Made by a program: the position numbers and the translations under genes. DNA of 53,813 nucleotides from a virus (taxonomy: Duplodnaviria > Caudoviricetes). Below the pieces are notes generated by a model that did not search any database, had not been told where the DNA came from, and saw only the letters and a program-made list of their open reading frames with translations. Below, in pieces: positions 4,793 to 53,813 of the stretch. Where the stretch lies: positions 1 to 53,813 of the IMG/VR virus record IMGVR_UViG_3300020109_000024. One strand, given 5' to 3'. How positions within the stretch are numbered: position 1 is the stretch's first letter; each line of letters begins with the position of its first letter.

Positions 4793-4934
4793 TATGCGCG
4801 CGCACCTTTTCAGCCGCCGCTTGTCTCCCCTTCGGGGTTGCGTGTGCGAGCCGCGGCGGGGACGGACAGCCCTCTACCTGGGCGGATCCGCTTCCCTGCG
4901 ATGGAGGCTTGTGCCTCGGCGGCAGGGTGCATGA

Positions 4935-5011
<77 letters not shown>

Positions 5012-6119: not shown

Positions 6120-8133
6120 GCGTTCGTGGCGTAAGGGTCTGACCCCACCGCCGAACCTCGACGTGGTGGATTGGGCCGAGAACTTCCGGAAGCTGAGCAA
6201 GGAAAGCTCGAACGGCGGCAAGTTCATCACCGCCAAGGTGGAGGTGGCGCGCGGGCCGATGCTCTGGGCGACGGAACCGGGCGTCAGCAAGATCACGCTG
6301 ATGGCCTGCACGCAGCTCCTGAAGACCACGGTCATCGAGAACATCCTCGGCCGGTTCATCCACCTCGATCCCTGCCCGATCCTGGCGGTGCTGCCGAAGG
6401 ACGACGCGGCCGAGACCTTCTCGAAGGACCGGCTCGCGCCGATGATCCGGGATTCGAAGAAGCTCCTCGAACTGTTCGGTGAGGCTAAGTCGCGGGATGC
6501 CGGCGCGACGCTGACGCACAAGCAGTTCCCCGGCGGGCACATCACGCTCGTCGGAGCGAACAGCCCGACCAACCTCGCCATGCGGCCGATCCGGCTCTTG
6601 GTGTGCGACGAGATCGACAAGTACCCGCTCTCGGCCGGCGGTGAGGGCCCGCCGATCGATCTCGCCGAGGAGCGGCAGGCCGAGTTCAAGGCCAACAGTC
6701 TGACCGTGCTCGCCTGCTCGCCGACCGTCGCGGGGCGCTCGGCGATCGAGACGAGCTACGAGGAGAGCGACCAGCGCAAGGCTTTCGTCTCCTGCCCGCA
6801 CTGCTCGGCCTGGCAGCCGATGGAGTGGGAGCAGGTCAAGTTCGACAAGGACGACGACGGCAAGATCATCGCCGCGAGCGCCCGGTACGAGTGCGTGGCC
6901 TGCGAGAAGCCGTGGAGCCCGGCACAGCGGCTCGTGGCGCTTCGCCGGATCGAGTGGCGGCAGACCAAGCCGTTCGCCTGCTGCGGAGAGAAGCAGGTGC
7001 CGGAGCAGTGGGCGCCGCTGGCGCACGGGGTGCGGCGGGCGCTGTGCCGGTGCTGCGGCGCCCAGGCGGTGTCGAACGAACACGCGGGCGGACAGGCGTC
7101 CAAGCTCTACGCGCCGAAGCAGACGATCAAGGAGACGGTCGCGAAGTTCGCGCGGGCGCTGCGACGGGGGCCGGAAGCGTTGCGGACCTTCTTCAACACG
7201 CAGCTCGCCCGCACGTGGAGGGAGGGCGTCGACGCCCCCGAGTGGAAGGACGTCTACGCCCGGCGCGACGACTACCTGTCCGGCACGGTTTCGCACGGCG
7301 CGCTGATCCTGTTCGCCGGTGTCGACGTGCAGAAGGATCGCCTCGAAGTCTCGGTCTGGGGCTTCGGGCGCAACCGCGAGCGCTGGCTGGTCGAGCACCG
7401 GGTGCTCACCGGCGACACCGCCCGGCCCGCCGTCTGGGCCGAACTGGTGACCATGTTCGACGAGACCTGGGAGCACGCCAGCGGCGTCGAGATGGCGGTG
7501 CGGGATTGGGGCATCGATTCGAGCGCCTTCACCGACGTGGTCTACAACTTCGTCCGGTCCCAGGCCGGCCGCGGCAACGTCCACGCCATCGACGGCCAGG
7601 ACAGCTACTCGAACATCTATCTCGGCGTCGGCAACAAGGACGCGAACCCGCGGGGCAGGAAGATCCGGCGCGGCCTGAAGACGGTCCGCATCGGCGTCTC
7701 GCTCGCCAAGCAGGAACTGATGAACTGCCTCGGCCTGCAGCGCCCCGCTGCCGGCGCGGCGTTCCCGGCCGGCTTCGTTCACCTCCCGCGGGACGTGTCC
7801 GAGGACGGCGTGCAGCAGCTCACCGCCGAGGAACTGGTGGTCAGCCTCAGCCGGGGAAAGACCCGGCGGGAATGGGTGCCGATCGGCGGGCGCCGCAACG
7901 AGTGGCTGGACTGCGCGAACTACGCCCGCGGCCTCGCCGCTTTCCGCGGGTGGGACCGGTGGCGCGAGACGCAGTGGCACGGCCTGGAAGACGCGCTCGG
8001 CATTGAGCGGAAGACGGCGCCACTGCCGCTAGAGACCCCGCCGCCGGCCGTGGTCGCGAACTCGCTGGCAGACCGCAACATGAAGCGCCGCACCCGGCGC
8101 AGCGTGGCCCGCAAAGGGCCGGCGAGGTGGTGA
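6049..8133 (+). CDS. Terminase large subunit (lambda GpA family)
   Basis: Degenerate Walker A (ACTQLLKT), Walker B LVCDEIDKY, nuclease GVDVQKDR, RNEWLDC. Confidence 0.95.
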   Translation: MSTSSSPNSVSPPTSTYLDTASLRRSWRKGLTPPPNLDVVDWAENFRKLSKESSNGGKFITAKVEVARGPMLWATEPGVSKITLMACTQLLKTTVIENILGRFIHLDPCPILAVLPKDDAAETFSKDRLAPMIRDSKKLLELFGEAKSRDAGATLTHKQFPGGHITLVGANSPTNLAMRPIRLLVCDEIDKYPLSAGGEGPPIDLAEERQAEFKANSLTVLACSPTVAGRSAIETSYEESDQRKAFVSCPHCSAWQPMEWEQVKFDKDDDGKIIAASARYECVACEKPWSPAQRLVALRRIEWRQTKPFACCGEKQVPEQWAPLAHGVRRALCRCCGAQAVSNEHAGGQASKLYAPKQTIKETVAKFARALRRGPEALRTFFNTQLARTWREGVDAPEWKDVYARRDDYLSGTVSHGALILFAGVDVQKDRLEVSVWGFGRNRERWLVEHRVLTGDTARPAVWAELVTMFDETWEHASGVEMAVRDWGIDSSAFTDVVYNFVRSQAGRGNVHAIDGQDSYSNIYLGVGNKDANPRGRKIRRGLKTVRIGVSLAKQELMNCLGLQRPAAGAAFPAGFVHLPRDVSEDGVQQLTAEELVVSLSRGKTRREWVPIGGRRNEWLDCANYARGLAAFRGWDRWRETQWHGLEDALGIERKTAPLPLETPPPAVVANSLADRNMKRRTRRSVARKGPARW

Positions 8134-8387
8134 TGGCCGACACGACCCCACAGGATCTTGCGAAGCTGCGCGTGCAACTCGCCAGCCTCGACCGCGCCAT
8201 GGCGAGCGGCGTCCTGACCGTCGAGCAGGCCGACAACGGCGGGCGCACGACCTATCGGAGCTATGTCGAGATGCAGCAAGCGCGTCGCGACCTCGTCGGC
8301 CGCATCAACGCCGCCGACGCGAAGCTGTCTGGCACGCAGCGGCGGCGCACGAACCGCATCTCCCTGATCGGCACCAGCGGGTTCTGA
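8133..8387 (+). CDS. Head-tail joining protein, gpW-like
   Basis: ASGVLTVE...TYRS motif; between terL and portal. Confidence 0.75.
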   Translation: MADTTPQDLAKLRVQLASLDRAMASGVLTVEQADNGGRTTYRSYVEMQQARRDLVGRINAADAKLSGTQRRRTNRISLIGTSGF

Positions 8388-8390
8388 TCG

Positions 8391-10004
8391 ATGGCCGGAA
8401 CGTTCCAGACCCGGCTGAGGGTGAAGGGTACGGGCGAGGTCGTCGCACCGATGGCGATGACCGACCTGTCGGGCGGCGCAAGCGCGGTCGAGACGACTCC
8501 CTACGAGGTGGCCGGGGGCACCGGCCGACGCTCGAAATCTTGGCGGGTCGGATCGTGGGGGCCAAACGCCGCGATCACCTATGCGCTCGACGAGCTGCGG
8601 CGGAAATCGCGCGACCTCAGTCGGAAGAACGCCTTCGCCGGGGCGGCCGTCGACAAGCTCGTCGACAACATCATCGGCACCGGGATCGTCCCGCGCTCGA
8701 TCGCTGCCCGCCCGGTCGCGGGCCTGAGCGAGGAGCAGGCGAAGCGGGTCAAGCAGGAGGATGCCGCGTTCCGCGCTGCCCTGCAGGAGCTGTTCCTAGC
8801 CTGGACCGACGAGGCAGATTCGACCGGGGCGCACGATTTCTACGGACTGCAGGCCATCGCGGTGACCGGCATGGTCGAAGGCGGCGAGAGCTTCACCCGC
8901 CTGCGCACCCGGCTCCTGTCCGACGGTCTCACCGTGCCGCTCCAGTTGCAGGTTCTGGAAGGGGACCACTGCGATCATCTGAAGACGGATCAGACCAACC
9001 GCGTCCGTCAGGGCATCCAGTTCAGCGCGATCGGCGCGCGCACCGGCTATTGGCTTCGGCGCGAGCATCCCGGTGATGGCGCCATCACCGGCGCGGGCTT
9101 CGAGGAAACCCTCGTGCCGGCTGGCGACATCTGCCACCTCTACCGAGCACGGCGCCCCGGGCAGGACCGCGGCGAGCCCTGGCTCGCGCGGGCGCTGCGC
9201 ACCCTCTACGACCTCGACCAGTATTTCGACGCCGAGCTGGTGCGGAAGAAGAACGCCGCCCGCCTCGTCGCCTTCATCAAGAAAAGCTTCGACGCGGAGG
9301 GCGAGGGCGAGCCGGGCGGCGGGCCGATGGGCTCCGATCCGGCCGACGACGACGGTGTGGCTGCTATCGAGATGGAGCCCGGCACGGTGCAGGTGCTCGC
9401 CGAGGGCGAAGACGTCGAGATGTGCGAGCCGGCCGATGTCGGCACGAACTTCGAACCCTTCGTGCGCGAGGCCAAGCGCAGCGTCGCCGCGGCGGTGGGG
9501 CTGCTCTACGAGGTGCTGAGCGGCGACTACAGCCAGATGGACGACCGCACGCTGCGCGCGGCGCTCAACGACTTCCGCCGCTCCGTCGAGCGATGGCAGC
9601 ACCACCTCGTCGTGTTCCAGCTTTGCCGGCCGATCTGGCGCCGCTGGATCGACCTCGCCCTGCTCTCCGGCGCGCTGAAATTGCCGGCCGGCATGACCCG
9701 GCAGCAGGCTTATGCGGTCGAGTGGGTGCCGCAGGCGTGGTCCTACATCCACCCGGTGCAGGACGTCGAAGGCAAGATGAAGGAGGTCCAGGCGGGCTTC
9801 TCGACGCGCACCCGCGTCGTCGCCCGGGCCGGCTACGACGTCGAGCAGGTCGATGCCGAGAACGCGGCCGACAACGCCCGGGCCGACGACCTCAAGCTCT
9901 CCTACACCTCGGACGGGCGCAAGGCCGAGAAAGCGCCGGCCGCCGCCGCGCCCGCGCAACCCGACGACCCGCCCCGGCCCAACGATCCGAAGGAGCCGCA
10001 ATGA
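8391..10004 (+). CDS. Portal protein, lambda family
   Basis: RKSRDLSRKN, RPGQDRGEPW, YEVLSGDYS, W.YIHPVQD motifs. Confidence 0.95.
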   Translation: MAGTFQTRLRVKGTGEVVAPMAMTDLSGGASAVETTPYEVAGGTGRRSKSWRVGSWGPNAAITYALDELRRKSRDLSRKNAFAGAAVDKLVDNIIGTGIVPRSIAARPVAGLSEEQAKRVKQEDAAFRAALQELFLAWTDEADSTGAHDFYGLQAIAVTGMVEGGESFTRLRTRLLSDGLTVPLQLQVLEGDHCDHLKTDQTNRVRQGIQFSAIGARTGYWLRREHPGDGAITGAGFEETLVPAGDICHLYRARRPGQDRGEPWLARALRTLYDLDQYFDAELVRKKNAARLVAFIKKSFDAEGEGEPGGGPMGSDPADDDGVAAIEMEPGTVQVLAEGEDVEMCEPADVGTNFEPFVREAKRSVAAAVGLLYEVLSGDYSQMDDRTLRAALNDFRRSVERWQHHLVVFQLCRPIWRRWIDLALLSGALKLPAGMTRQQAYAVEWVPQAWSYIHPVQDVEGKMKEVQAGFSTRTRVVARAGYDVEQVDAENAADNARADDLKLSYTSDGRKAEKAPAAAAPAQPDDPPRPNDPKEPQ

Positions 10005-24023: not shown

Positions 24024-27000
24024 ATGACCTTCGACGACGACGGCCCTCTCCAGGGTGCCGGCGCGCTTCCGCGCGTCCAAGGTGCCGGTGCCGGTGGCGG
24101 TGGCGGCAAAGGTGGCGGCGGATCGGCGTCCAGCGCGCCCGACACGCTGTTCTCGACGGCGACCGTGCGCCTCGTCGATCTCCTCGGCGAGGGCGAGATC
24201 GTCGGCGTGCGCGGCGGCCTGAAGGGCGTCTACCTCAACGACGTGCCCGTCCAAAACGAGGATGACAGCTACAACTTCAAGGGGCTGACGGCCGAGTTCC
24301 GCGTCGGCACGCCCGACCAGCCCTACATGGCCGGCTATCCGGACGTGCAGACGCCGCGCAACGTCGGGATCAAGGTCAACCAAGCGACCCCGGTCACGGT
24401 CTCGATCACCGACACGGACGTCGACCGCCTCCGCGTGACGGTCCAGGTGCCGTCGCTGATCCTGGCCAAAAGCGACGGCTCGGTCCGGGCGAACTCGGTC
24501 AGCTATCGCGTCCAGGCGCGCTACAGCGGCGGCCCGTGGGTCAATTCGCTCGGTGACCAGACCATCACCGGCAAGACCACCTCGGGCTACTTCCGCTCGC
24601 ACGAGATCGCGCTGCCTATCAATCCGAGCGGTGCCTCCGCGCCCTGGCAAGTGCAGGTGATCCGCCTGTCGCCGGACACCGACGACTTCAACAACAGCCA
24701 GGCGAAGTTCACCAACCAGTCGGACCTCGTCTTCTACTCGACCACCTCCATCGTCGACGCACGGTTCAGCTACCCGCATTCGGCGATGGTCGGCCTGACC
24801 GCGCAGGCGGCGTCGTTCGGCTCCAGCGTGCCCGGCCGGACTTACCTTGTCGACGGCGTGCTGATGCCGATCCCGTCGAACTACGATCCGGTGGCGCGCA
24901 CCTATTCCGGCGTCTGGGACGGCACCTTTAAGGAGGGCTTCAGCAACAACCCGGCCTGGGCGCTGAACCTGATCCTGCGCAACGACCGCTTCGGCCTCGG
25001 CGAGTTCATCGACACGGCCGCGATCGACAAGTGGTCGCTCTACGAGATTGGCCGCTACTGCGACGTTCCGGTCTCCGACGGCAAGGGCGGGCAGGAGCCG
25101 CGCTACGTCTTCAACGGCGCGATCTCGACACAGCAGGAGGCGTTCGAGCTGCTGCAGCTCATCGCCCAGGTGTTCCGCGGCACGGTCTACTGGTCGTCCG
25201 GCACCGTGACAGCGGCGCAGGACCGCCCGTCCGACCCGGTACTACTGGTGACCGAGGCCAACGCCATCGAGGGCGAGAACGGCGAGGTGTTCGCCTACGC
25301 CAGTTCGGGTCGGCGTGCGCGACACACCGTGGCGCTGGTCGCCTGGAACGACCCCGACAACCTCTACAAGCAGACCATCGAGGTCGTGGAGGATTCGGAC
25401 GGGGTCGCGCGCTACGGCTACAACCCGACCCGCATTGACCTCCTCGGCTGCACCTCGCGCGGGCAGGCGCACCGCACCGGCCTCTGGACGCTGTTCACCG
25501 AGCTGCACCAGACGCAGGTGCTAACCTACCGGGCCGGGCTCGATCACGCCGTCATCCGCCCGGGCGACATCGTCGCCGTCCAAGACCCGCAGATCGCCAA
25601 CCTCGACCTCTCGGGGCGGCTGATGGGCGGCTCGACCGCCTCGGTTCTCGTGCTGGATCGCCCGGTGACGCTGGCGAGCGGGGCAACCTACACGATCTCC
25701 GTCGTGATGCCGGACGGGACCGTGCAGGAGCGCGAGATCTCGACCGGCGCGGGGACGGTGTCGTCCGTGACGCTGCGGTCCGCCCTCCCGCAGGTGCCGG
25801 ACCCGGCCGCGGTGTGGCTCATCGCCGGCCCGATCGAGCCGCAGCTGTTCCGGGTCGTGTCGATCCGCGAGGAGGAGCCGCACATCTACGCGGTGGCGGC
25901 GCTGCAGCACGAGCCGGGCAAGTACGCGACGATCGACGACGGCGCCGCGTTCGAGCCCTCGCCGATCACCGAGTTCCCGAACATCGTGCTGCCGCCGACC
26001 AACCTGTCGGTGCGCGAGAGCCAGTACACCGAACTCGGCCAGCCGAAGCAGGCCATGACGCTGTCCTGGCTGCCGGGGCAGGCCTTCAACTCCGTCGCCT
26101 ACTTCGTGACCGTGATTCGCCCCTCGGGCGCGACGGTGACCACCCGGACGGCCAGCCAATCCATCGACTTCCTTGAGGCCGAGGTCGGCGTCTGGACCTT
26201 CGTCGTCGTGGCAATCGGTCTCAACGGCAAGTCCTCGCTGCCGGCGCAGACGGCCTACACCCTCTCGGGCTGGGCGGGGCAGGCCGCGACCACCGTGGCC
26301 AGCCTGTCGATCAAGGGCGGCGGCTCGACCTTCACCGGCCGCTCCTGCACCGTGGCCTGGACCAACCAGATCGCCGCGAGCGTGCCGCCCTACCCGGTCC
26401 GGAACGCGGTCTACGTCTTCGACGCCTCGACGCAGGCGATGGTCCATCGCGAGGTGCTGCCGGCCAGCGTCACCGAGTGGACCTACGACTACTTCCTTAA
26501 CGTCAACGAGGGCGGCCCGCGGCGTCAGTTCCGCGTCGGCGTCACCGCCTACTCGGCCGCGGGCGATGAGGGCCCGCCCTCCTATCTGACGGTGTCGAAC
26601 CCCGCGCCGGAGATCATCGTGCCCACGCTCGGCGCGACCTCGGAAGTGCTGTTCGTCGACCTCCCCAAGGTCGCGGACGCGGACTTCGCGGGGTATCTGG
26701 TCTGGGTCTCCGAGACGCCCAACATCAACCCGTTGACGGCCCCCAGCTACGACGTGGCGGGCAACTCGTTCCCGTACCGGGGCGTGCCCGACAAGACCTA
26801 CTACGTGCGGGCTGCCGCCTACGACGCATTCAGCAAGGACCCGGCGCAGCTCAACGTCAGCGCCGAGCAGTCGAAGAAGCTGACGATTCAGATCTTCGAC
26901 CCGCTGGCGCCGCCGATCCCTGGCACGCCGACCCTCGCCTCGAATGTCGCCGAGATCGCCCCGGACGGCGCGGTGACGGCGAAGGTGACGATCCAGTGGC

Positions 27001-30000
27001 TGGCGGTCACCTCGACCAACCTCGCGACCTACGAGGTCGCCATCGCCGAGGGCAACAATCCGGCCCAGGCCGCCTACGTCGGCGGTCGGGTCGTCTCCGG
27101 CACGACGGCAGCCTTTGCTGGGCTGATGCCGGGGCGCCAGTACAGCTTCAAGGTCCGCTCCAACCCGCTCAACGGCTTCGCCGACAGCGGCTGGTCCGCG
27201 GTGCTCGTCGTCACGGCGGCCCTGAACACGACCCCGCCCAACGCGCCGGCCCTGTTCACGGCGGACCCCTCGTTCGAGGCGGCCAACCTCGCCTGGGCCA
27301 ACCCCAGCAACAAGGATCTGCTCGGGATCGAGATCTGGGCCGGCATCACCAACGTGCTCGCCAACGCGACGCTGCTGAAGACCGTGCCCGCGCCGGCCTC
27401 CTTCTACCGCGACGTGCTCGGCACCACCGCCACCAAGTTCTACTGGATCCGGGCCGTCAACACGTCGGACTTCAAGTCGGGCTTCGTCGGGCCGCAGTCG
27501 GTGACCTCGGTGGCGCTGGTCGGTGCGCAGCTTGCGGCTGGCGTCATCGACGCGACCAAGCTCGCCAGCTCTATCGCGGCCAATACCGTCGTCACGACCC
27601 TGCCGACCGCGAAAACCACAGACTATGTCACCTTCGGGGGCGAACAGTACCGCTGGGATACGGCGACCAACAAGTACACCAAGGCCGTTGCTTCCACCGA
27701 TATCTCGGGCAAGATCATCGCGGCCCAGATCGACACGGTCAACAAGGAGGCCATCGCGACCGCCCTGGCGCAGTCGGCCATCCAGACGTCGCAGCTCTCG
27801 GGCAACCTCGATGCCACCCGGATCTCCGGGGCGCTGACTTCGGACCAGATCGCCAGCCTCAACGCCGCGAAGGTCGCGGGCACGCTGACGGCGGCCAACA
27901 TCGACTTCGCACGGCTCATGGGAACCATCGCTGGAACCCAGATTGCTGCGGGCTCCATCGTCGGGTCGAAGCTCGCCGTCGTCTCGACGAACATGGCATT
28001 CAACCCGGATGCGTCGCAGGGTCGGCGGGGATGGACCATCGGCGGTTCTATGCCCGCCGGGGTTGATGCCGGGGTTAGTGTGTCTTGGGCGCCGGATGGC
28101 TTCAAAGCTATCTTCACGTCGAGCACCGCAACAGCGTCTGCGATCGGTTCTTCTTACATTGATCTGTATACCCAAAACGTATCCGCAGATGGCGTATTCA
28201 GCAACTACACCGTAGCTGCTAATGTAACTTACGAGTTTTCGGCTTGCATCTCACCGCACCGTTGCGCCGGGCGCATTATTGTCCAGTGGCTCAATGCCTC
28301 TGGTGGTCACATTTCTTTTTCTGACAACGCTTCTCGCGTGGTCAACCAGCAGGTTAGTCAGGGGGCCTATGCTGCATTCCCTAAGTCTGCGATGATTGCT
28401 GTTGCACCTACTGGTGCAGTCAGTGCGCGCGTATTCTTCCGCATGGACAGTGTAGTAGGCGACAACCCCTACATGTTCGTGTCGGCCTTCATGATGGCCG
28501 CCACGCGCACCGGGGCCACCGAGACCAGCCCCTACGTGGCGCCGGGCATCACCACCATCGACGGCTCGGGTATCGTCTCGAACTCGATCACGACGCGGGT
28601 GATCGCGGCTGGCGCCATCACGGCCGATCAGATCGGTGCCAACGCGGTCACGGCCACCAAGATCTTGGCGGGTTCGGTTCAGACCGGGCACATGGTCGCC
28701 GGCACCATCGACGCCAATCGTCTCGTGGCGCAGTCGATCACAGCCGGTTTGCTCGCCGCCAACTCGGTGACGGCCGAGAAGGTTTTGGCCGGGTCCATCA
28801 CGGCGAGCAAGCTGACCCTGGCCGACACGACCAACGCGCTGCTGAACGGCCACTTTCTTAATCAATCGAGCGAGGGCTGGGCTCTCTACGGCGATACGGG
28901 TATCGATGTAGCTAGCGCAGATGATCAGGGAGGGCAGTGGCGTCTCACCGGCACCACTGAAATGTATTTCGCGCGTAGTGCGCAGTGGATACAGGTCACC
29001 CCTGGTGAGATTTTGTATCTCTCCACGATGGTCTACAGCAACCGTAACGCAGGCAGTGCGGGTATTTATCTGGAATTCTACAATCAAGCGGACGGGGGTG
29101 GCTTTGGCGCCTTTACCGCGACTCGCAGTGAGAAAGGGAGCTGGGTCAAGGGCGAGGGGCAGGTTACGGTCCCTGTCGGCCGGCAGAAGGTAAGGGTCGT
29201 TCTCTACGCCGACGCGCCGGGGACCGGCAGGGTCTTCTTTGGAAAGGTCCAAGTCCGCCGCGCCAACGGGGCCGAACTCATTGTGGACGGCGCGATCACG
29301 ACCAATAAGCTGGTCGCCAACGCGGTAACTTCCGACAAGATCACGGCGAACGCCATCACCACGGCCCACATCTCGGCCGGGGCGATCAAGGCCGACCAGC
29401 TTGATGTGGGGGCTGTAACCGCCGCCAAACTTGGTGTCGGTCTCAACACGGGCAACCTGATCTGGAACAGCGAGGGTACAGCAGACGGCCTGAACGGTGG
29501 TGCTGCTGGTACTCAGCCAAATCCCATCTGCGATATGGTAGTTGACTGGAAAGTCAACGGCTCAATCCGGTCAATTCGCCTTCACCACACCAACCCCACC
29601 AACGGGGCCTACAACACCACGGATATTCAAAATCCGGCGGCCGGGGGCGGCTACACTTGGGAAATCCCGGTCCAGGGTGGTAAGCGTTACGAGTTTTCCT
29701 GCTACGTCTCCGTGCATGGTCCTTGTCGGGCGTATATCCAGGCACACTTCAACGACGGCAACGGGTTCTTCCCCGGCAACACCAGCAACATCATGAACAC
29801 CAACGGGAGGCAGGGTGCCCCCGGTGATGATTGGCGTTGCAAGATTATGGTCGATGCGCCTGGCACCGCGCAGAAAGTCTTGCTCCGTCTCGTGGTGGAG
29901 TATCAGGGCACTTCGGCATGCTGGGGCTTCTTCTCCGGGTTCTATCTCGGTATTGCTGGGGCGAACACGACAGCCTTTTCGGAATGGACGCTTCAGAGCC

Positions 30001-31418
30001 GTACTGTTATCAGCGGTGGACAGATCTCCACAAATTCGCTGAACGCAAACCGGATCGTTGCACGCACGATTACGGCGGATCGACTTGCACTACGGTCCAT
30101 TCTTGCCGAGAACTTGGTTGCTAACACTATTACTGGCGAGGAGATTGCGGTTGGGGGCGTTCACGCCAACCGTATCCAGTCGAACACGATCACAGCTACA
30201 CAGATTGCTGCCAACTCGATCTCGGCCAGCCGCCTCAATATCGAGCTGCGCGGCATCATGCCGGTCAACATCTACTTCGAGATGGAGCGCGACGGGAATG
30301 GTAACCCGACCGGTTGGCTGAAGTGGACGGCCGGTCAGATCGAATACATCGACCACAATGGGAACCGCGCCTTCTCGCAGATCCCCGCTGGCCGGATGCA
30401 GCGCGGGTCGGACGGGTGGGTGACGGTGTGGTTCAACATCGCCGCACCGGGTCAGCTACAGGCCAATTCGGGGAATAACATTGCGGGTATCCGAGCCGAT
30501 CCTAACTGTATTCTGGTGGCGACTTCGGCCGACCTCACAGGTGTCATCGTCAACTGGGGCGGCACGGTCATCGACGGTGACAAGATCGTCGCCAACTCGA
30601 TCCAGGCGCGGAACATCGCCGCGAACCAGATCCAGACGACCCACATGGCGGCCAACTCGATCAACGGCGACCGGATCGCCGCTGGTACGATCTCGGCCGA
30701 CAAGATCACGACCGGCACCCTTACGGTAAACGCCGTGTTCTCGCTTGGCTCGAATAGCCAAACTGACCTGTACGCTCACCCTAATGGTGGCATCTTCCGT
30801 GTCCGTAACCGGCAGCTGAACCAGTGGCGCGCGGCGTTCGGCTACGTCGGCGACTGGACCGGGGACGGTAATGACTTTGGATTGCTGCTCTGGGGTGCGG
30901 ACGGGGTCAACCGCCTGCGGTTCTCGAACGCCGTCAACTTCATCGACGGCGTGATCATTTCAGATGCGACGATCCAGAACGCCAAGATCGCGAACCTGAC
31001 CATCGGCAACGAGAAGGTTCAGTCCGAGGCTATCACGCGGGGCGCATTCGCCACGACAGGGGCGGGCGGGGCCGACACATCGGTGGGCCTGACCATCCGT
31101 AACCCCGGAACCCGCGTCGTCATCTGGGTGGCCCGCACAGGCGCGGCCGGTCAGCGCTACCTCACGGGTGCGGTGACGGGGCAGCTTCAGATCTACTGGG
31201 CGCGGCCGGGTCAAGGTTGGGAGCTTATCCGTGCGATCCCGAACGCTTTTATGTACGAATACGTCAACGGGCAGGGTAACTATCTTCAGCACTTGCCGAC
31301 GTCAGACATGTGTCAGGTGGGCACACTTGAAGGCGGCTACTACCAGTTCCGTGTTCTTGACACCAGCGCCGCGGGTGCTTCGTCTGTTTCCATCTGCGCT
31401 GTAGAGTTCTCCAAATGA
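24024..31418 (+). CDS. Tail tip/host-specificity protein J-like with FN3 domains, Ile-repeat spacers and carbohydrate-binding-like modules
   Basis: DLLGEGEI, PSNYDP..RTYSGVWDGTFK, NNPAW, GCTSRGQAHR gpJ motifs; 2464 aa. Confidence 0.93.
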   Translation: MTFDDDGPLQGAGALPRVQGAGAGGGGGKGGGGSASSAPDTLFSTATVRLVDLLGEGEIVGVRGGLKGVYLNDVPVQNEDDSYNFKGLTAEFRVGTPDQPYMAGYPDVQTPRNVGIKVNQATPVTVSITDTDVDRLRVTVQVPSLILAKSDGSVRANSVSYRVQARYSGGPWVNSLGDQTITGKTTSGYFRSHEIALPINPSGASAPWQVQVIRLSPDTDDFNNSQAKFTNQSDLVFYSTTSIVDARFSYPHSAMVGLTAQAASFGSSVPGRTYLVDGVLMPIPSNYDPVARTYSGVWDGTFKEGFSNNPAWALNLILRNDRFGLGEFIDTAAIDKWSLYEIGRYCDVPVSDGKGGQEPRYVFNGAISTQQEAFELLQLIAQVFRGTVYWSSGTVTAAQDRPSDPVLLVTEANAIEGENGEVFAYASSGRRARHTVALVAWNDPDNLYKQTIEVVEDSDGVARYGYNPTRIDLLGCTSRGQAHRTGLWTLFTELHQTQVLTYRAGLDHAVIRPGDIVAVQDPQIANLDLSGRLMGGSTASVLVLDRPVTLASGATYTISVVMPDGTVQEREISTGAGTVSSVTLRSALPQVPDPAAVWLIAGPIEPQLFRVVSIREEEPHIYAVAALQHEPGKYATIDDGAAFEPSPITEFPNIVLPPTNLSVRESQYTELGQPKQAMTLSWLPGQAFNSVAYFVTVIRPSGATVTTRTASQSIDFLEAEVGVWTFVVVAIGLNGKSSLPAQTAYTLSGWAGQAATTVASLSIKGGGSTFTGRSCTVAWTNQIAASVPPYPVRNAVYVFDASTQAMVHREVLPASVTEWTYDYFLNVNEGGPRRQFRVGVTAYSAAGDEGPPSYLTVSNPAPEIIVPTLGATSEVLFVDLPKVADADFAGYLVWVSETPNINPLTAPSYDVAGNSFPYRGVPDKTYYVRAAAYDAFSKDPAQLNVSAEQSKKLTIQIFDPLAPPIPGTPTLASNVAEIAPDGAVTAKVTIQWLAVTSTNLATYEVAIAEGNNPAQAAYVGGRVVSGTTAAFAGLMPGRQYSFKVRSNPLNGFADSGWSAVLVVTAALNTTPPNAPALFTADPSFEAANLAWANPSNKDLLGIEIWAGITNVLANATLLKTVPAPASFYRDVLGTTATKFYWIRAVNTSDFKSGFVGPQSVTSVALVGAQLAAGVIDATKLASSIAANTVVTTLPTAKTTDYVTFGGEQYRWDTATNKYTKAVASTDISGKIIAAQIDTVNKEAIATALAQSAIQTSQLSGNLDATRISGALTSDQIASLNAAKVAGTLTAANIDFARLMGTIAGTQIAAGSIVGSKLAVVSTNMAFNPDASQGRRGWTIGGSMPAGVDAGVSVSWAPDGFKAIFTSSTATASAIGSSYIDLYTQNVSADGVFSNYTVAANVTYEFSACISPHRCAGRIIVQWLNASGGHISFSDNASRVVNQQVSQGAYAAFPKSAMIAVAPTGAVSARVFFRMDSVVGDNPYMFVSAFMMAATRTGATETSPYVAPGITTIDGSGIVSNSITTRVIAAGAITADQIGANAVTATKILAGSVQTGHMVAGTIDANRLVAQSITAGLLAANSVTAEKVLAGSITASKLTLADTTNALLNGHFLNQSSEGWALYGDTGIDVASADDQGGQWRLTGTTEMYFARSAQWIQVTPGEILYLSTMVYSNRNAGSAGIYLEFYNQADGGGFGAFTATRSEKGSWVKGEGQVTVPVGRQKVRVVLYADAPGTGRVFFGKVQVRRANGAELIVDGAITTNKLVANAVTSDKITANAITTAHISAGAIKADQLDVGAVTAAKLGVGLNTGNLIWNSEGTADGLNGGAAGTQPNPICDMVVDWKVNGSIRSIRLHHTNPTNGAYNTTDIQNPAAGGGYTWEIPVQGGKRYEFSCYVSVHGPCRAYIQAHFNDGNGFFPGNTSNIMNTNGRQGAPGDDWRCKIMVDAPGTAQKVLLRLVVEYQGTSACWGFFSGFYLGIAGANTTAFSEWTLQSRTVISGGQISTNSLNANRIVARTITADRLALRSILAENLVANTITGEEIAVGGVHANRIQSNTITATQIAANSISASRLNIELRGIMPVNIYFEMERDGNGNPTGWLKWTAGQIEYIDHNGNRAFSQIPAGRMQRGSDGWVTVWFNIAAPGQLQANSGNNIAGIRADPNCILVATSADLTGVIVNWGGTVIDGDKIVANSIQARNIAANQIQTTHMAANSINGDRIAAGTISADKITTGTLTVNAVFSLGSNSQTDLYAHPNGGIFRVRNRQLNQWRAAFGYVGDWTGDGNDFGLLLWGADGVNRLRFSNAVNFIDGVIISDATIQNAKIANLTIGNEKVQSEAITRGAFATTGAGGADTSVGLTIRNPGTRVVIWVARTGAAGQRYLTGAVTGQLQIYWARPGQGWELIRAIPNAFMYEYVNGQGNYLQHLPTSDMCQVGTLEGGYYQFRVLDTSAAGASSVSICAVEFSK

Positions 31419-47547: not shown

Positions 47548-47907
47548 ATGAGCGCCCTGGCCTTTCACACCGACACGCGCGCCATCGCTCGGGCCCTTGA
47601 GGACCGGGAGACCGCACGCGTCGGCAAACTGCCGATTGCTCGGCAGGCGGTGGCCCGGCGCGTCGGCTGCGCTCCGGGCACCCTCGAAACGTTGCGTAAG
47701 GGTCGGTTGAAACGGGTCGAGCGCTGGCTTCACGAGAAGCTGGAGGCGCTGCTGGTCGGTGAGATTGAATCCGAAATCCGGAGGCTGACCCTTGAATTGG
47801 AGACGTATCGCCGAACTCGTGGCGACGCTGATGGCGCTCCGGAAATGGCGCGACTGGTTGAAGCGATCGAGAGCGCGCAGAGACTGATTTCGGGGGAGGT
47901 CGCGTGA
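47548..47907 (+). CDS. HTH protein at the CII position
   Basis: ARQAVARRVGCAPGTLETLRKGRLK; GGAG RBS. Confidence 0.7.
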   Translation: MSALAFHTDTRAIARALEDRETARVGKLPIARQAVARRVGCAPGTLETLRKGRLKRVERWLHEKLEALLVGEIESEIRRLTLELETYRRTRGDADGAPEMARLVEAIESAQRLISGEVA

Positions 47908-48494
47908 GCGTGCGTGCGCGCATCCTCGGGATCGATCCGGGGCTCACCGGCGCCATCGCGCTGCTGACGCCGGACGCCCCTGGCGTCGTCAGCGTGTGGG
48001 ACATGCCGACGGTCCTGAAGACGGTCGATCCGGCCGCGCTCGCGGCGTTGATCCGCGATCAGGACCCGGACGCCATCGTGCTTGAAGAGGTCGGACCGCA
48101 GCCGCGGGACGGCGTCCGGCAGGCATTCAGCTTCGGGCAGTCCTACGCCACGGCGCGGGTCGTCGCCTTGATGCTGGAGATCCCGCTGCACCTCGTGCGG
48201 CCGCAGGCCTGGAAGTCGTTCTACCGCCTTCGCGGCGGCGACGAGGGCAAGGAGCAAGGCCGCGCCCTGGCGCTCCGCCGCTTCCCGGCGAGCCATGCCA
48301 GCTTCGCGCGGAAGAAGGATCACAACCGGGCAGAAGCCTCCTTGCTCGCGCTCTACGGCGCGGAGCGGCTGCTGCTCGCGGGTTCGTCTCACGATCCGAG
48401 CCGGGTCGGGGACGTGGCACAGGCCGGAGGCGTGGCGGCCTCCGGCCACCCGCCTCTCACCAGTTCACCGAGCGCGACCGAGGTGCCGGAATAG
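47904..48494 (+). CDS. RuvC-like Holliday junction resolvase
   Basis: ILGIDPG, VLEEV, PQAWK, AEASLLA. Confidence 0.85.
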   Translation: MSVRARILGIDPGLTGAIALLTPDAPGVVSVWDMPTVLKTVDPAALAALIRDQDPDAIVLEEVGPQPRDGVRQAFSFGQSYATARVVALMLEIPLHLVRPQAWKSFYRLRGGDEGKEQGRALALRRFPASHASFARKKDHNRAEASLLALYGAERLLLAGSSHDPSRVGDVAQAGGVAASGHPPLTSSPSATEVPE

Positions 48495-48575: not shown

Positions 48576-49376
48576 ATGGCAATCAGCCTCAAGAACCTGA
48601 CCCACAAGAAGGCGCCGTCCCCGCCGCGTGTCCTGATCTTCGGACCGCCCGGCATGGGGAAGACGACCGTCGCGGCCGAGGCCCCGAATCCGGTCTTCAT
48701 CCAGACCGAGGACGGCTACCCGAGCGACCTGCCCGACCCGCCGCCGCGGTTCGAGCGTGAGATGCTGGGCGACTTCAACGGCGTGCTCGATGCCGTCAAC
48801 GCGCTCATCGTCGAGGACCATGATCGGCAGACGCTGGTCATCGACAGCCTCGACAAGCTCGAACCGTGGGTGTGGGAGGCGACCTGCCGCGAGAACAACT
48901 GGGCGACGATCGAGCAGCCCGGCTACGGCAAGGGATACCTCGCCGCCGAGGCGCAGTGGCGCGACCTCCTCACCGGCCTGAACGTGCTCCGCCGCGAGCG
49001 CGGCATGGCGATCTGGCTCATCGCGCACTCGACGATCGAGACCGTCAACGACCCGACCACGGTGGCCTATTCGCGGTTCGATATCCGCCTGCAGAAGCGC
49101 GCCACCGCGCTCTTTCAGGACGAGATGGATGCGATCCTGTTCATCAACCAGGACGTCACCATCAAGCAGGACGACCCGAAGGCGAAGACGTCCCGGTCCC
49201 GCGCCGACGGTGGCGGCAACCGCTGGATCTACACCGCCCCGCGGCCGGCCTTCGTCGCCAAGAACCGCTTCGGCATCCCCGACAAGATCCTGTGCGAGCG
49301 CGGCAACACCTACGCGCAGCTCGCGCCGTTCTTCCCCGACCCCGGTCAGCCGCTGGCGGCGGCTGAAGCGGCGTAA
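48576..49376 (+). CDS. AAA_24 / Sak4-like ATPase recombinase
   Basis: GPPGMGKTT, TLVIDSLD, LIAHS, AKNR. Confidence 0.88.
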   Translation: MAISLKNLTHKKAPSPPRVLIFGPPGMGKTTVAAEAPNPVFIQTEDGYPSDLPDPPPRFEREMLGDFNGVLDAVNALIVEDHDRQTLVIDSLDKLEPWVWEATCRENNWATIEQPGYGKGYLAAEAQWRDLLTGLNVLRRERGMAIWLIAHSTIETVNDPTTVAYSRFDIRLQKRATALFQDEMDAILFINQDVTIKQDDPKAKTSRSRADGGGNRWIYTAPRPAFVAKNRFGIPDKILCERGNTYAQLAPFFPDPGQPLAAAEAA

Positions 49377-49406: not shown

Positions 49407-49943
49407 ATGGCACAACTCGGCGAAAGCATCGACGTCGACAACATCGTTCCGGAACGCGGCGACTTCGAACCGCTGCCGGCCGGCCCCTACATGGTGCAGG
49501 TCATCGACAGCGACGTGGTCGAGACCAAGGCGCAGGACGGTCTCATCCTGAAGCTGACCTTGGAAGTCATGGACGGCCCGTTCGCGAACCGGAAGGTCTG
49601 GGCCAACCTCAACTTCAAGAACAAGAACCCGACCGCGCAGCGTATCGCGCAGGAGGCGATCAAGCAGATCTGCGACGCGGTCGGCTACAGCGGGCAGCTC
49701 ACCGATAGCGAGGTGCTGCACTACAAGCCGCTGCGCGCGCAGCTCACCATCCGGAAGGACGCCGAGTACGGCGACCGGAACGAGGTCAAGCGCTACTCGC
49801 CCCTGAACGGCAACGCACCGCCCGCGGGCAAGCCGGCGCCGACGGGCGGCGGTGGCGGCGGGCAGTCCGGTGGCGGGCAGGCGCAGCAGTCGAAGCCGTC
49901 TGGCGGCGGCTCGGGCCGCCCGTGGGGCAATCGCGCGGCGTGA
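49407..49943 (+). CDS. DUF669 family ssDNA-binding protein
   Basis: FEPLPAGPY...NRKVW...NEVK; Gly-rich tail; follows Sak4. Confidence 0.82.
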   Translation: MAQLGESIDVDNIVPERGDFEPLPAGPYMVQVIDSDVVETKAQDGLILKLTLEVMDGPFANRKVWANLNFKNKNPTAQRIAQEAIKQICDAVGYSGQLTDSEVLHYKPLRAQLTIRKDAEYGDRNEVKRYSPLNGNAPPAGKPAPTGGGGGGQSGGGQAQQSKPSGGGSGRPWGNRAA

Positions 49944-50029: not shown

Positions 50030-50362
50030 ATGGCGAACATCGAGCGCACGGCGGAGCTATGCCCGGATCCGAGCGGCCCGCAACCCTGCACGAACCGTGA
50101 CTGGTTCGACAGCTATACCCGCGCAGCCCATCGCACGACTAGGCTGCCGAAGGGGTGGATCGGCTACCTTTTCCAAGCCGTCGAGGGCCAGGGCGTGATG
50201 GTCACTGGCCGCGTGGTCACGCAAGCTATCACTCGCGGCCCACGCAAGGGCGCCCCGAACTTTCGCACCGCCGACCCGAAAACCGAGCTGAAGGTCTTTG
50301 TCACGTACCGCGCCGTAGAGGCGCAGCGCAAGCGTGAGACCGCGGGAGACGCCCGTGGCTGA
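50030..50362 (+). CDS. Hypothetical protein
   Basis: GGAG RBS. Confidence 0.65.
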   Translation: MANIERTAELCPDPSGPQPCTNRDWFDSYTRAAHRTTRLPKGWIGYLFQAVEGQGVMVTGRVVTQAITRGPRKGAPNFRTADPKTELKVFVTYRAVEAQRKRETAGDARG

Positions 50363-51326
50363 GATCCCGCCCGTCGATTCCCCGACGGTCCTCGCCGTCT
50401 ACGCCGGGCTCGAAGCCGCCCGGCCGGCCGAGGACCGGCCCTATCTCGGCATGTCGGGCTTCAGCTCCGACTGCGACCGCAGCCTCTGGTACGGCTGGCG
50501 CAAGGCGCACGCGCCCGAGCCGCTGGACGGTCGCCGCATCCGCTTGTTCGAGACCGGCCACCTCGAAGAAGACCGACTTGTCGATAACCTCCGCGCGGCC
50601 GGCGTCCTCGTCGAGCCAACCGACCCGGCGACCGGGCGGCAGTTCGCTGTCTGGAACCTCGGCGGGCACCTGCGCGGCCACCTCGACGGGCGCGTGCTGC
50701 GCGTCCCGGAGGCGCCGAAGACGTGGCACGTCTTGGAGTGCAAGACCCACAACGACAAGAGCTTCAAGGAACTGGTCAAGTCCGGTGTCACCGCGTCGAA
50801 GCCGGGGCACTTCCGGCAGATGCAGTTCTACATGCATCACACCGGACTCACCCGCGCCCTGTACGTCGCGGTGAACAAAAACGACGATCAGCTCTATACG
50901 GAACGCCTCCGCTACGACCCGCTTGCGGCTCATCAGCTACTTGTGCGGGCCGAACGGATACTGCGCGCCGACGAGCCACCCGCGAGGCTGCATCAGGACC
51001 CCTCGGCGCCGTCAGCCTATGCCTGCGGCTGGTGTCCGGCGCGCGGCCTTTGTCACGACGGATGGTTCGCGCGGGTCCACTGCCGCACCTGCCTGCACGC
51101 GACCGCCATCGTCGACGAAGGCGATGCCGGGCGCTGGCGCTGCGAGCGCTTCGGCCTCGACCTCACGTTCGAGGAGCAGATGCGGGGCTGCGACTTCCAT
51201 CTGTTCCTGCCGGCGCTCGTGCCTGGCCAGCAGGTCGATGCCGACGAGGCCGCCGGCACCGTCACCTATCAGCTTCACGACGGAGCGACCTGGGTCGATG
51301 CGCCTGCACGCAGGGGGCTCGCATGA
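50355..51326 (+). CDS. Cas4-like PD-(D/E)XK exonuclease
   Basis: CDRSLWY, GHLDG, LECKT, QMQFYM, C..CP....C. Confidence 0.85.
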   Translation: MAEIPPVDSPTVLAVYAGLEAARPAEDRPYLGMSGFSSDCDRSLWYGWRKAHAPEPLDGRRIRLFETGHLEEDRLVDNLRAAGVLVEPTDPATGRQFAVWNLGGHLRGHLDGRVLRVPEAPKTWHVLECKTHNDKSFKELVKSGVTASKPGHFRQMQFYMHHTGLTRALYVAVNKNDDQLYTERLRYDPLAAHQLLVRAERILRADEPPARLHQDPSAPSAYACGWCPARGLCHDGWFARVHCRTCLHATAIVDEGDAGRWRCERFGLDLTFEEQMRGCDFHLFLPALVPGQQVDADEAAGTVTYQLHDGATWVDAPARRGLA

Positions 51327-51469
51327 CCGCCCCGGAAATCCTGATCGCCCTCTACGAGAACGCCCTGCGCGAGATCGTCGAAGCGCTCGGCACCGCCGAG
51401 CCCGACGCCGCGCAGACCGCCCTGGAGATCGCCGCCGACGCTCTTGCCAGCGGGGAAGATGCACCGTGA
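51323..51469 (+). CDS. 48-aa hypothetical protein
   Basis: ATGA/GTGA coupling on both sides. Confidence 0.55.
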   Translation: MTAPEILIALYENALREIVEALGTAEPDAAQTALEIAADALASGEDAP

Positions 51470-53424
51470 TCGAACCGCGCCCCTACCAGATCGCGACCAT
51501 CCAGGCGATCCTCGACTATTGGCGCGACGGCGGCGGCAACCCGCTCGTCGATCTCGCCACCGGCACCGGCAAGTCCGTCTGCATCGCCGGCCTTATCGAC
51601 GAGCTGCTGGCCGAGTACCCGACGCTGCGGGTGGTCGCCCTCGTCCATACCCGCGAGCTGGTCGAGCAGAACGTGAAGGCGTTTCTCCGGGTGCGGCCGG
51701 GAAGCGACGTCGGCATCAACGCGGCCGGCCTGAACCGGCGCGATCGGCATCAGCAGGTGCTCTTCGCTTCGATCCAGTCCGTCTACCGGGAAGACGGCTA
51801 CTCGCTCGGGCTCCGCGACCTCGTCCTGATCGACGAGGCGCACCTTCTGCCGAAGAAGGGCGAGGGCATGTATCGCCAGTTCATCGACAAGCTGCGCGAG
51901 CGCGTGGCGGACCTGCGGGTCGCCGGGTTCACCGCCACGCCGTACCGCCTCGATTCCGGCCGGCTCGATGAGGGGCAGGGCCGCATCTTCGAGCGGATCG
52001 TCTTCACCTACGGCATCGGCGATGCCGTGGCCGACGGCTGGCTCGCCCCGCTCGTCTCCAAGGCGACGACGACCGGCATGGACGTGTCGGGCGTCACCCG
52101 GCGCGGCGGCGAGTTCGTCGAGAGCGACCTGCAGCGCGCCGTCGATCGCGACGACGTGACGGAGGCGGCCTGCGACGAGATCGTCGCGATGGGCGCCGAC
52201 CGGCAGTCCTGGCTGGCCTTCTGCGCGGGCGTGGAGCACGCCTTTCACGTCCGCGACGCCCTGCGCGCCCGCGGCGTTACCTGCGAGACGGTGACCGGCG
52301 AGACGCCGGCCGGCGAGCGGGACCGGCTGATCCGCGACTTCCGGTCCGGCCGCATCCGCTGCCTGACCAACGCCATGGTGCTGACGACCGGCTTCGACGT
52401 GCCGGGGGTCGATCTGATCGCCATGCTCCGGCCGACACTCTCGACGGGGCTCTACATCCAGAAATGCGGGCGTGGGACGCGGCCGGTCTACCCGCCCGGT
52501 TTCGACCCGAACCGGGCGACGGCCGAGGAGCGCGTTGCGGCCATCGCAGCGTCGTCGAAGCCCAACTGCCTGGTGCTCGACTTCGCCGGGAACGTCCGCC
52601 GGCACGGGCCGGTCGATGCCATCTCGATGGGCGGGGACGCGGCGAGCGGGCGGCCGCGGGCTCCGGTCGAGGCGGCGGTGAAACCCGACGAGGTGCGGGC
52701 GAAGGTCTGCCCGAACTGCTCCACGCTCGTGGGCCTCGGCGTGTTCGCTTGCACCGCGCCCGGCTGCGGGTTCGAGTGGGAGCGCCCGAAGCCGGCGCAC
52801 GAGGCCCAGGCCGACGCCGAGGCGGTCATCATGACCGGCCAGCGCTCGGCGGCGCCGCACATCCCCGATCCTTGGCTCGCGGTGACGGGCATCGACTTCG
52901 CCCATCACGAGAAGCGGGGCGATCCGAGCGCGCCGCCGACGCTGCGGGTCGATTATCAGTGCGGCTTCGTCCACCACTCGGAATGGGTCTGCTTCGAGCA
53001 CGACGGCGTCGCCCGGGCCAAGGCGGAGAAGTGGTGGCGCGATATGCGCGGGCGCCAACCGGCGCCGAAGAGCGTCGATGAGGCGCTGAGCCGCTGCCTG
53101 GACCGGGAGACGGCGACGCCGAGCGACATCGTCGTGCGCCGCGACGGCAAGTTCATGCGGGTGGTCAGCCGCCGGTTCTCGCCGGAGGAATTGGCGCGCG
53201 CTGCCGCCTACGTCGTCAAGCCGATCGTCGAGCGTGAGAACGCCGAGTGGTGGCGGGTGCTCGGGATCGATCGGTCTGCCAGCTTCGGCGAGATCAAGGG
53301 CGCCTTCCGCCGTCTCGCGCGCGAGCACCACCCCGATGCCGGCGGCTCGAACGCGGCGATGGCGAACATCAACCGCGCCTACCGGGAAGCCATGGAAGAG
53401 GCCGAGGAAGGAGTGCCGTTCTGA
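51466..53424 (+). CDS. SF2 DEAH helicase (RadD/YejH-like) with Zn ribbon and C-terminal J-domain
   Basis: ATGTGKS, DEAH, TATP, TTGFD, QKCGRGTR, CPNC..C....C; WRVLGI...RRLAREHHPDAGG...INRAY. Confidence 0.92.
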   Translation: MIEPRPYQIATIQAILDYWRDGGGNPLVDLATGTGKSVCIAGLIDELLAEYPTLRVVALVHTRELVEQNVKAFLRVRPGSDVGINAAGLNRRDRHQQVLFASIQSVYREDGYSLGLRDLVLIDEAHLLPKKGEGMYRQFIDKLRERVADLRVAGFTATPYRLDSGRLDEGQGRIFERIVFTYGIGDAVADGWLAPLVSKATTTGMDVSGVTRRGGEFVESDLQRAVDRDDVTEAACDEIVAMGADRQSWLAFCAGVEHAFHVRDALRARGVTCETVTGETPAGERDRLIRDFRSGRIRCLTNAMVLTTGFDVPGVDLIAMLRPTLSTGLYIQKCGRGTRPVYPPGFDPNRATAEERVAAIAASSKPNCLVLDFAGNVRRHGPVDAISMGGDAASGRPRAPVEAAVKPDEVRAKVCPNCSTLVGLGVFACTAPGCGFEWERPKPAHEAQADAEAVIMTGQRSAAPHIPDPWLAVTGIDFAHHEKRGDPSAPPTLRVDYQCGFVHHSEWVCFEHDGVARAKAEKWWRDMRGRQPAPKSVDEALSRCLDRETATPSDIVVRRDGKFMRVVSRRFSPEELARAAAYVVKPIVERENAEWWRVLGIDRSASFGEIKGAFRRLAREHHPDAGGSNAAMANINRAYREAMEEAEEGVPF

Positions 53425-53813
53425 TGATGACAGCGAACTATCCCGACGGCGAGACCATCGTGTCCCGCATCAAGGGCGACCGCGAACCCGTCATCTGCGG
53501 CGTCTGCCGCCGCCGGGCCACGACCGGACTCGGGTGGGCCGGGCAACAGGGCCGGCCGATCATGTGGTTGTGCGATGATCCGATCTGCGGGCAGCTCGCG
53601 AGGACGGTGTACGAGATGCCGAAGCTCAAGCTCGATGCCTTCGAGGAGGCGGCGCGGGACGATGCCGGCGAGATGGCGGGCGCCTACCTCGATTCCATCG
53701 GAAAGACGGACCTCGCCACGCTGACCGGCGAGGAGTGGGCGACCCTGCTGCATCAGGTCATTGTCGGCTTCGAGGCGGGCCTGCGCACTCGCATTCTCAA
53801 GGGCATGGCACCG
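53424..53813 (+). CDS. DUF6511-like protein; continues across the circular junction to the stop at 131-133
   Basis: MMTANYPDG...CGVC...C....C...AYLDSIGKTDLATLTGEEW...MAPF*. Confidence 0.75.
   Translation, partial: MMTANYPDGETIVSRIKGDREPVICGVCRRRATTGLGWAGQQGRPIMWLCDDPICGQLARTVYEMPKLKLDAFEEAARDDAGEMAGAYLDSIGKTDLATLTGEEWATLLHQVIVGFEAGLRTRILKGMAP
53688..53813. repeat. 126-bp terminal direct repeat (right copy)
   Basis: Identical to 2-127. Confidence 0.95.

Follow-up and report, generated by a model that had tools for sequence, protein, structure and literature searches.

The record IMGVR_UViG_3300020109_000024 of the IMG/VR database, which we analysed over its whole stretch of 53,813 nucleotides (hereafter, the window), contains a phage gene for a protein of 652 amino acids, in which a RadD-like superfamily 2 (SF2) helicase is followed in the same frame by a J-domain. 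This is a real, clade-specific domain fusion, and literature searches of titles and abstract beginnings turned up no publication describing an SF2 helicase of a phage with such a domain. An earlier note, made from the letters of this DNA alone, had described a phage gene running without a stop from a RadD/YejH-like helicase and a zinc ribbon into a J-domain with an intact HPD (His-Pro-Asp) tripeptide. These claims agree with the present analysis, down to the positions given for E594 (codon 53245-53247) and HPD, with the correction that the J-domain is a shorter one of three helices. As for the function, we consider it somewhat probable that the helicase works in a module for recombination-dependent replication and that its captured J-domain would recruit host DnaK to remodel a client complex.

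A helicase and a J-domain in one reading frame

The gene is arranged as follows, with the positions given in the window; pLDDT denotes the predicted local distance difference test of the AlphaFold2 model.

51466-53424, plus strand: the helicase–J-domain gene, 652 amino acids, with a GTG start, a TGA stop at 53422-53424 and no internal stop
51469-52482, plus strand: SF2 motor core, residues 2-339, with Walker A GTGKS (33-37), DEAH (123-126), TAT (156-158) and QxxGRGxR (332-339)
52708-52767, plus strand: zinc ribbon of four Cys residues, C415, C418, C429 and C434, none of which varies across 116 aligned homologues
52873-53205, plus strand: RadD-like helicase C-terminal domain, approximately residues 470-580, assigned with Foldseek and modelled at a pLDDT of 89-97
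53206-53244, plus strand: linker between helicase and J-domain, residues 581-593, assigned from the modelled secondary structure and variable among the 15 fused proteins
53245-53406, plus strand: minimal J-domain, residues 594-647, with helix I (595-599), helix II (607-620) and helix III (629-647)
53329-53337, plus strand: HPD tripeptide H622-P623-D624 in the loop joining helices II and III, followed by an invariant xGG
53407-53421, plus strand: acidic C-terminal tip, ...EEGVPF, with a pLDDT of 45

The C-terminal part was recognized as a J-domain by the Pfam profile PF00226 (DnaJ), which matches residues 595-639 with 33.1 bits and hence exceeds the gathering cut-off of 27.8. Also, in the AlphaFold2 model of the whole protein, which was built on a 116-sequence alignment of 15 fused and 101 unfused proteins and has a mean pLDDT of 88.1, the helices of the J-domain are modelled with a pLDDT of about 89-96 (about 93-96 in the antiparallel hairpin of helices II and III, of which helix II has a basic face). 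J-domains in the PDB match the region from E 1.3e-06, including DnaJ of the DnaK complex (entry 5nro), and so do the chain 1gh6_A of large T antigen (E 7e-4) and, weakly, the J-domains of T4-like phages (31% identity, E about 8e-3).

The HPD tripeptide and the following GG are invariant in all of the 15 fused proteins, down to 59% identity, and the motifs A-[FWY]-R in helix II and IN-R-A-[YF] in helix III are kept in all 15 as well. In the J-region (codons 591-645), furthermore, the ratio of nonsynonymous to synonymous substitution rates (dN/dS) ranges from 0.03 to 0.47 and stays below 1 in 15 of 15 pairs; these values, based on 55 codons only, are similar to those for the rest of the gene. 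Judged from these comparisons, the J-domain is conserved and under purifying selection.

The J-proteins closest in type belong to phrog_9210, a family of unknown function whose phage proteins have approximately 200 amino acids and are annotated as "DnaJ-like chaperonin" or "molecular chaperone". The J-domain in this family is of the same subtype, namely C-terminal and three-helical with the pattern WWxVLG...HPDxGG...INxAY, and one member (P0144) is 52% identical to the phage J-domain over 52 residues without gaps (BLASTP). The match is confined to positions 146-202 of the 204 profile positions, and nothing in the helicase corresponds to the first 145 residues of phrog_9210; the phrog_9210 proteins are indeed encoded by separate genes and share only the J-domain with it. 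These sequence features class it as a short J-domain of three helices and of the "HPDxGG" type, nearest to the small phage J-proteins.

The earlier note had named an assembly error or a missed stop as a way in which the fusion might be spurious, and these are ruled out by 14 further fused clusters, by related loci and by independent contigs aligned without gaps. Indeed, a contig from another study (X3, 8,533 nucleotides) covers 51945-53600 with 28 substitutions and no gaps, and a contig from yet another study (X4) covers 52813-53600 with one substitution and no gaps; together, the two contigs cross the junction, the J-domain, the stop and the next gene with no indels.

The proposal that this J-domain acts on DnaK was supported insofar as structure prediction places it on the canonical J-site of a DnaK of the host type. 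For this prediction, residues 585-652 of the fusion protein were co-folded with residues 1-610 of DnaK, which was taken from a Methylorubrum aminovorans genome carrying a 92% identical copy of the gene and was aligned with 25 DnaKs of the same order. The interaction prediction score from aligned errors (ipSAE) was 0.73, 0.66 and 0.70 (median 0.70), as compared with 0.00 for the best of three controls, and the mark used was reached by 58 of 80 solved complexes and by two of 110 mismatched pairs; because a DnaJ–DnaK complex has been solved (5nro) and the model might remember it, passing this mark indicates likeness to a working J-domain rather than binding. At least 96% of the contacts are shared between the runs, with a partner pLDDT of at least 83. 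In the predicted complex, HPD (622-624) contacts residues 385-387 in the interdomain linker of DnaK and residues 474-475, while helices II and III contact residues 207-210 and 412-416, the interface including residues 611-619 of helix II. We take this site to be the one occupied in the solved DnaJ–DnaK complex. Recruitment of DnaK is well supported in silico as a prediction, and we infer that it also occurs inside the cell.

The remainder of the protein is a RadD-like helicase. The Pfam domains ResIII and Helicase_C match residues 2-161 (1.4e-24) and 236-339 (2.6e-14), respectively, and the phrog_16 "DNA helicase" profile matches residues 2-624 (1.1e-91), thereby covering the helicase and the C-terminal domain. 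The NCBIfam profile for RadD (NF053632) matches residues 5-339 (1.8e-69) with 234.6 bits, which is far under its equivalog cut-off of 720; by its profile scores, therefore, the protein is an SF2 helicase of the RadD-like type and is not a RadD orthologue. The best matches of the model in the PDB by Foldseek were the structures of E. coli RadD (8h5y, 7r7j and 6jde; E 9e-31 to 1e-29), with 25-26% identity over 621-650 columns and a template modelling score of 0.47-0.56; the root-mean-square deviation is high (about 17 Å), and hence the orientation of the domains differs from that in the RadD structures. Helicase activity appears likely to be retained, the residues of the SF2 motifs being intact and invariant or nearly so across the 116 aligned sequences.

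In common with E. coli RadD (YejH), the phage helicase has two RecA-like lobes, a zinc ribbon and a C-terminal domain, and the order of SF2 motifs, zinc ribbon and C-terminal domain is that of RadD; the zinc ribbon PF10571 is also listed for many homologues. It differs from RadD in being phage-borne (phrog_16), in having the J-domain and, in some members, in ending with an SSB-like tip. The matched RadD chains are 555-574 residues long, and the J-domain (594-647) is an extra module of the phage protein with its own Pfam match. In the available text of two sources, RadD is reported to work with recombination proteins, to accelerate the strand exchange by RecA, to have shown no unwinding of its own and to be stimulated by the C-terminal tip of SSB (PMC10238739; PMC8887467).

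As a side observation on this family, five homologues (P0056, P0079, P0096, P0103 and P0111) are longer, with 837-912 amino acids, and are 62-65% identical over just half of the query. In one of them, a LAGLIDADG domain (PF14528) is present, pointing to versions of the helicase that bear an intein.

Distribution and origin of the J-domain

How frequent the fusion is among homologues was examined in the 120 best protein clusters. PF00226 was carried by 14 of them (59-92% identity, 623-664 amino acids), which together with the protein in this study constitute the fused set of 15. The sources of the fused clusters are NCBI genomes of Methylorubrum, Methylobacterium and Chelatococcus and the assemblies of JGI, ENA and Logan. 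Isolated phages gave no fused protein: none of the 40 listed among 3,059 records matching the whole protein aligns past residue 611. When residues 560-652 were used as the query instead, J-domains were matched in 189 of the 50,697 records for phages. None of these J-domains is attached to this helicase, and the single one covering at least 80% of the query is annotated as a chaperone and not as a helicase.

A tree of the helicase columns only, constructed with IQ-TREE from the 15 fused and 35 next-best rows (the other 66 of the 116 rows being excluded), places the 15 fused proteins in one clade with an SH-like approximate likelihood ratio test (SH-aLRT) support of 99.4. FastTree with all of the 116 rows requires three changes of the J state, only one of which is forced by well-supported branches. 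A single acquisition of the J-domain would hence be the simplest reading of these trees. In sum, the fusion is rare, of one origin and found in one lineage of Hyphomicrobiales phages.

Residues 584-652 were searched against 1.84 billion representatives, by which 6,395 proteins were found at E ≤0.001. Among the best 150 of these, HPD is present in 148 and HPDxGG in 128; 130 are at most 250 amino acids long, and 93 have HPD within 35 residues of the C-terminus. When ten of these nearest representatives were scanned, five proteins of approximately 200 amino acids were full-length members of phrog_9210, and small J-proteins of that type occur in 93 phage records. Because the J-domain has its nearest relatives among small phage J-proteins, its capture from such a source is likely; namely, a mobile phage J-module was probably grafted onto the C-terminus of the helicase. 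As a possible precursor of the fusion, a separate J-gene beside an unfused helicase was not found in the 80 best IMG/VR loci, where the profile built from the fused clade may miss distant ones.

No helicase domain was detected in the ten long proteins (at least 445 amino acids) scanned among the best 150 matches, which instead carry PDZ/PH, ankyrin, TPR, Sel1, ferredoxin, DnaJ_C or repeated J-domains. The top match of the search, P0122 (679 amino acids), has six tandem J-domains (PF00226, 397 bits).

The gene neighbourhood and the C-terminal tip

The window contains genes for the large terminase, portal, major head protein and tape measure, confirming that the fusion is encoded by a phage. Positions 2-127 are identical to 53688-53813, so that the record, though classed as linear, represents an assembly closed into a circle of about 53.7 kb. 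An integrase-like protein matches PF00589 weakly, its score of 20.6 bits being lower than the cut-off. The genes for DNA metabolism are arranged around the fusion in the following order.

47904-48494, plus strand: RuvC-like Holliday junction resolvase (phrog_1770, 7.2e-30)
48576-49376, plus strand: Sak4-like single-stranded DNA annealing ATPase (phrog_124, 9.8e-38)
49407-49943, plus strand: SSB-like protein, which ends in ...GNRAA and has no IPF tip (phrog_2300, phrog_6015)
50334-51326, plus strand: Cas4-domain exonuclease (phrog_1990, 1.8e-89)
51323-51469, plus strand: open reading frame of 48 amino acids, overlapping both neighbours (ATGA, GTGA) and 89.6% identical in the related locus L002
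51466-53424, plus strand: the helicase–J-domain gene
53427-53813, plus strand: DUF6511 gene, crossing the circular junction to window position 133 (PF20121, 1.2e-09; synteny in L002-L007)
133-2529, plus strand: PrimPol and DUF3987 protein, a likely replicative primase-helicase (PF09250, PF13148)

These genes are closely packed: the GTG of the helicase–J-domain gene overlaps the stop of the small upstream frame (GTGA), the DUF6511 gene adjoins the TGA of the helicase, and the ATG of PrimPol (133-135) overlaps the stop of DUF6511. The small frame had no family match in the PHROG and Pfam scans of the proteins in the record. The order from RuvC to PrimPol is kept in five related loci (L002-L006), namely those of Methylorubrum aminovorans, three Methylobacterium genomes and one metagenome-assembled genome, although in the short contig L005 it starts from Sak4. 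With the further locus L007, PrimPol follows DUF6511 in six related loci. One of the five loci sits in a contig of 6.5 Mb, from which we consider them prophages. The source of the window is a temperate phage of Methylobacterium-type bacteria.

The kept gene order assigns the helicase to a module for recombination-dependent replication. Probably, it is not the replicative helicase, for which the PrimPol–DUF3987 protein is a better candidate. The locus L007 (Methylobacterium oryzisoli, 8001-8483) retains only the last 160 residues, namely the end of the C-terminal domain, the J-domain and a tip of ...ADIPF, with unrelated sequence upstream and with DUF6511 and PrimPol downstream. It is a truncated prophage or a recombination joint, and decay of helicase–J-domain genes hence does occur.

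The acidic tip ...EEGVPF is considered to be disordered given its low pLDDT, and it resembles the C-terminal tip of bacterial SSB. An end of the form D/E-x-(I/V/M)-P-(F/Y), such as DDDIPF, is found in six of the 15 fused and nine of the 101 unfused homologues (P0016, P0017, P0059, P0063, P0078, P0084, P0104, P0106 and P0117). The idea that the J-domain was simply inserted ahead of an ancestral IPF tip was not supported, since P0016 and P0017, two unfused homologues with such a tip, do not branch as sisters of the J-domain clade. Most of the unfused homologues end in a conserved alanine-rich C-terminus, ...(E)AA, ...AAE or ...AAA, which we take to resemble the degradation tags of the ssrA type. 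The tip of the phage helicase may act as a hook that recruits a partner or binds the protein itself; indeed, E. coli RadD is reported to bind the C-terminal tip of SSB (PMC10238739).

Elsewhere in the window, a second J-domain was not found, and no RNA dataset is listed among the sequencing runs carrying the sequence. An open reading frame of 2,464 amino acids lies in the tail region (24024-31418), and a gene for a NusG-like protein (PF02357, 26.2 bits) stands beside a tRNA-Met gene directly upstream of the packaging genes (3992-5011).

Possible roles of the J-domain in the phage

If the J-domain works as predicted, the HPD loop together with the basic side of helix II would dock on the ATP-bound host DnaK at the junction of the nucleotide-binding domain, the linker and the β part of the substrate-binding domain, and this docking would trigger the hydrolysis of ATP by DnaK. 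DnaK might then clamp a client held near the helicase, for which the candidates are the helicase itself, the Cas4 nuclease, Sak4, the SSB-like protein, PrimPol or a host protein. The outcome would be assembly, release or recycling of a nucleoprotein complex, by which recombination and replication could be affected. In two of the three phage records opened, the small J-protein has SSB or a recombinase nearby: its gene abuts the SSB gene in Caulobacter phage Sansa and is located two genes after the Bet recombinase in Synechococcus phage Ssp-JY39.

Several observations nonetheless weigh against this reading. In the third record, Erythrobacter phage R6L, the small J-protein stands among unannotated genes. 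The J-domain of the helicase lacks helix IV, the protein ending five residues past helix III, and its match to PF00226 spans only positions 2-50 of the 63 profile positions. Helix IV is a usual accessory of canonical DnaJ J-domains and is not a defining element, and many of the nearest small J-proteins stop similarly early, as is seen from the 93 of 150 in which HPD is followed by no more than 35 residues. The docking score, furthermore, possibly reflects the memory of the solved complex. Also, 106 of the 120 listed homologues have no J-domain, and, of the 584 relatives in IMG/VR, the best 80 likewise show none inside the gene or in flanks of up to 3 kb; the best E there was 0.18, whereas six positive controls scored 105-113 bits, and divergent J-domains could be missed by the hidden Markov model, which was made from the fused clade. 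The fusion is dispensable for the helicase family at large.

Alternatively, the J-domain might divert the host DnaK globally, for example, by stabilizing the heat-shock sigma factor or altering another DnaK-controlled regulator, with the helicase being a mere carrier that gives early expression; we regard this as unlikely. A precedent is Rki (gene 057w) of phage RB43, a relative of T4; Rki was reported to be the first phage protein with a functional J-domain, is likewise phage-encoded and aimed at host DnaK, and is described in the available text as interfering with DnaK and stabilizing sigma-32 and not as a generic co-chaperone (PMC3486835). The J-domain of the helicase is also predicted to dock on DnaK independently of the helicase part. 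Rki, however, is a stand-alone protein acting on the sigma-32 control with no helicase attached, and a global effect on DnaK would need no fusion because phages commonly encode small J-proteins of this subtype as separate proteins (among the 150 nearest matches, 130 have at most 250 amino acids). The fusion has instead been kept intact across the whole clade, at 59-92% identity, and the gene sits within an operon for DNA metabolism. That the fusion was maintained for so long, with separate J-proteins of this type being abundant, favours a tethered and local role.

A local role might also be served if DnaK folds, solubilizes, oligomerizes or turns over the helicase itself and no other client, which appears to us less probable still. 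By the general logic of J-proteins, a tethered J-domain would serve its own polypeptide first, and the helicase is a large multidomain protein with low-confidence loops at residues 390-470; most of the close homologues of the same architecture, on the other hand, manage without any J-domain. This possibility is a special case of the recruitment of DnaK to a client complex, from which it is inseparable by sequence. Very improbable is a neutral leftover, a missed stop or a chimeric contig behind the J-like tail, for which the shortened J-domain and the remnant in L007 might speak and against which stand the invariant HPD, the dN/dS below 1 in all pairs, the same open frame in five further loci of Methylobacterium and Methylorubrum assemblies and a metagenome-assembled genome, and the gap-free contigs from two other studies.

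Returning to the favoured explanation, in which the helicase recruits DnaK to remodel a client complex, we note that the use of DnaK by phages is classically indirect, as lambda borrows host DnaJ and DnaK to free its replicative helicase. Rki, the only phage J-protein known to be characterized, acts on the control of the heat-shock response (PMC3486835). The earlier note had proposed a convergent design like that of the polyomavirus large T antigen, and this holds as an analogy of independent origin: both are viral helicase polypeptides with a built-in J-domain engaging host Hsp70, as far as predicted for the phage protein. The loop HPDKGG is reported as invariant in the available text on large T (PMC11720896), as compared with HPDxGG in the phage protein. 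The helicase class, the position of the J-domain and the role are, however, different. Large T has an N-terminal J-domain, an origin-binding domain and a hexameric replicative helicase of superfamily 3 (SF3), whereas the phage protein is an accessory SF2 helicase of a bacterial virus with a C-terminal J-domain, and no match to SF3 or an origin-binding domain was found in its Pfam scan. The analogy is also loose because the helicase sits in a recombination module and a separate PrimPol–DUF3987 gene adjoins it. The resemblance to large T is thus functional, with no membership in that family.

Taken more broadly, the recruitment of Hsp70 could be a recurrent and independently evolved accessory of viral helicases, as exemplified by large T and the helicase in this study, with DnaK here being an obligatory remodeller of a recombination machine composed of helicase, nuclease and annealase; we put this forward as a tentative possibility. 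DnaK may then strip or hand over the SSB-like or the Sak4 protein or free the helicase from its product, and the ...VPF tip may be a second hook into the host SSB-partner network or the helicase's own SSB pocket of the RadD type.

A recombination helicase with a hard-wired J-domain would represent a direct and testable link between Hsp70 and the recombination-dependent replication of phages. Tests are practical because lysogens of Methylobacterium and Methylorubrum can be cultured; the close relatives without the J-domain provide natural controls, and a J-domain tethered to a defined DNA enzyme would offer a way to trap the client together with DnaK. In this lineage of phages, the small J-modules are considered to be mobile parts that may be grafted onto DNA enzymes.

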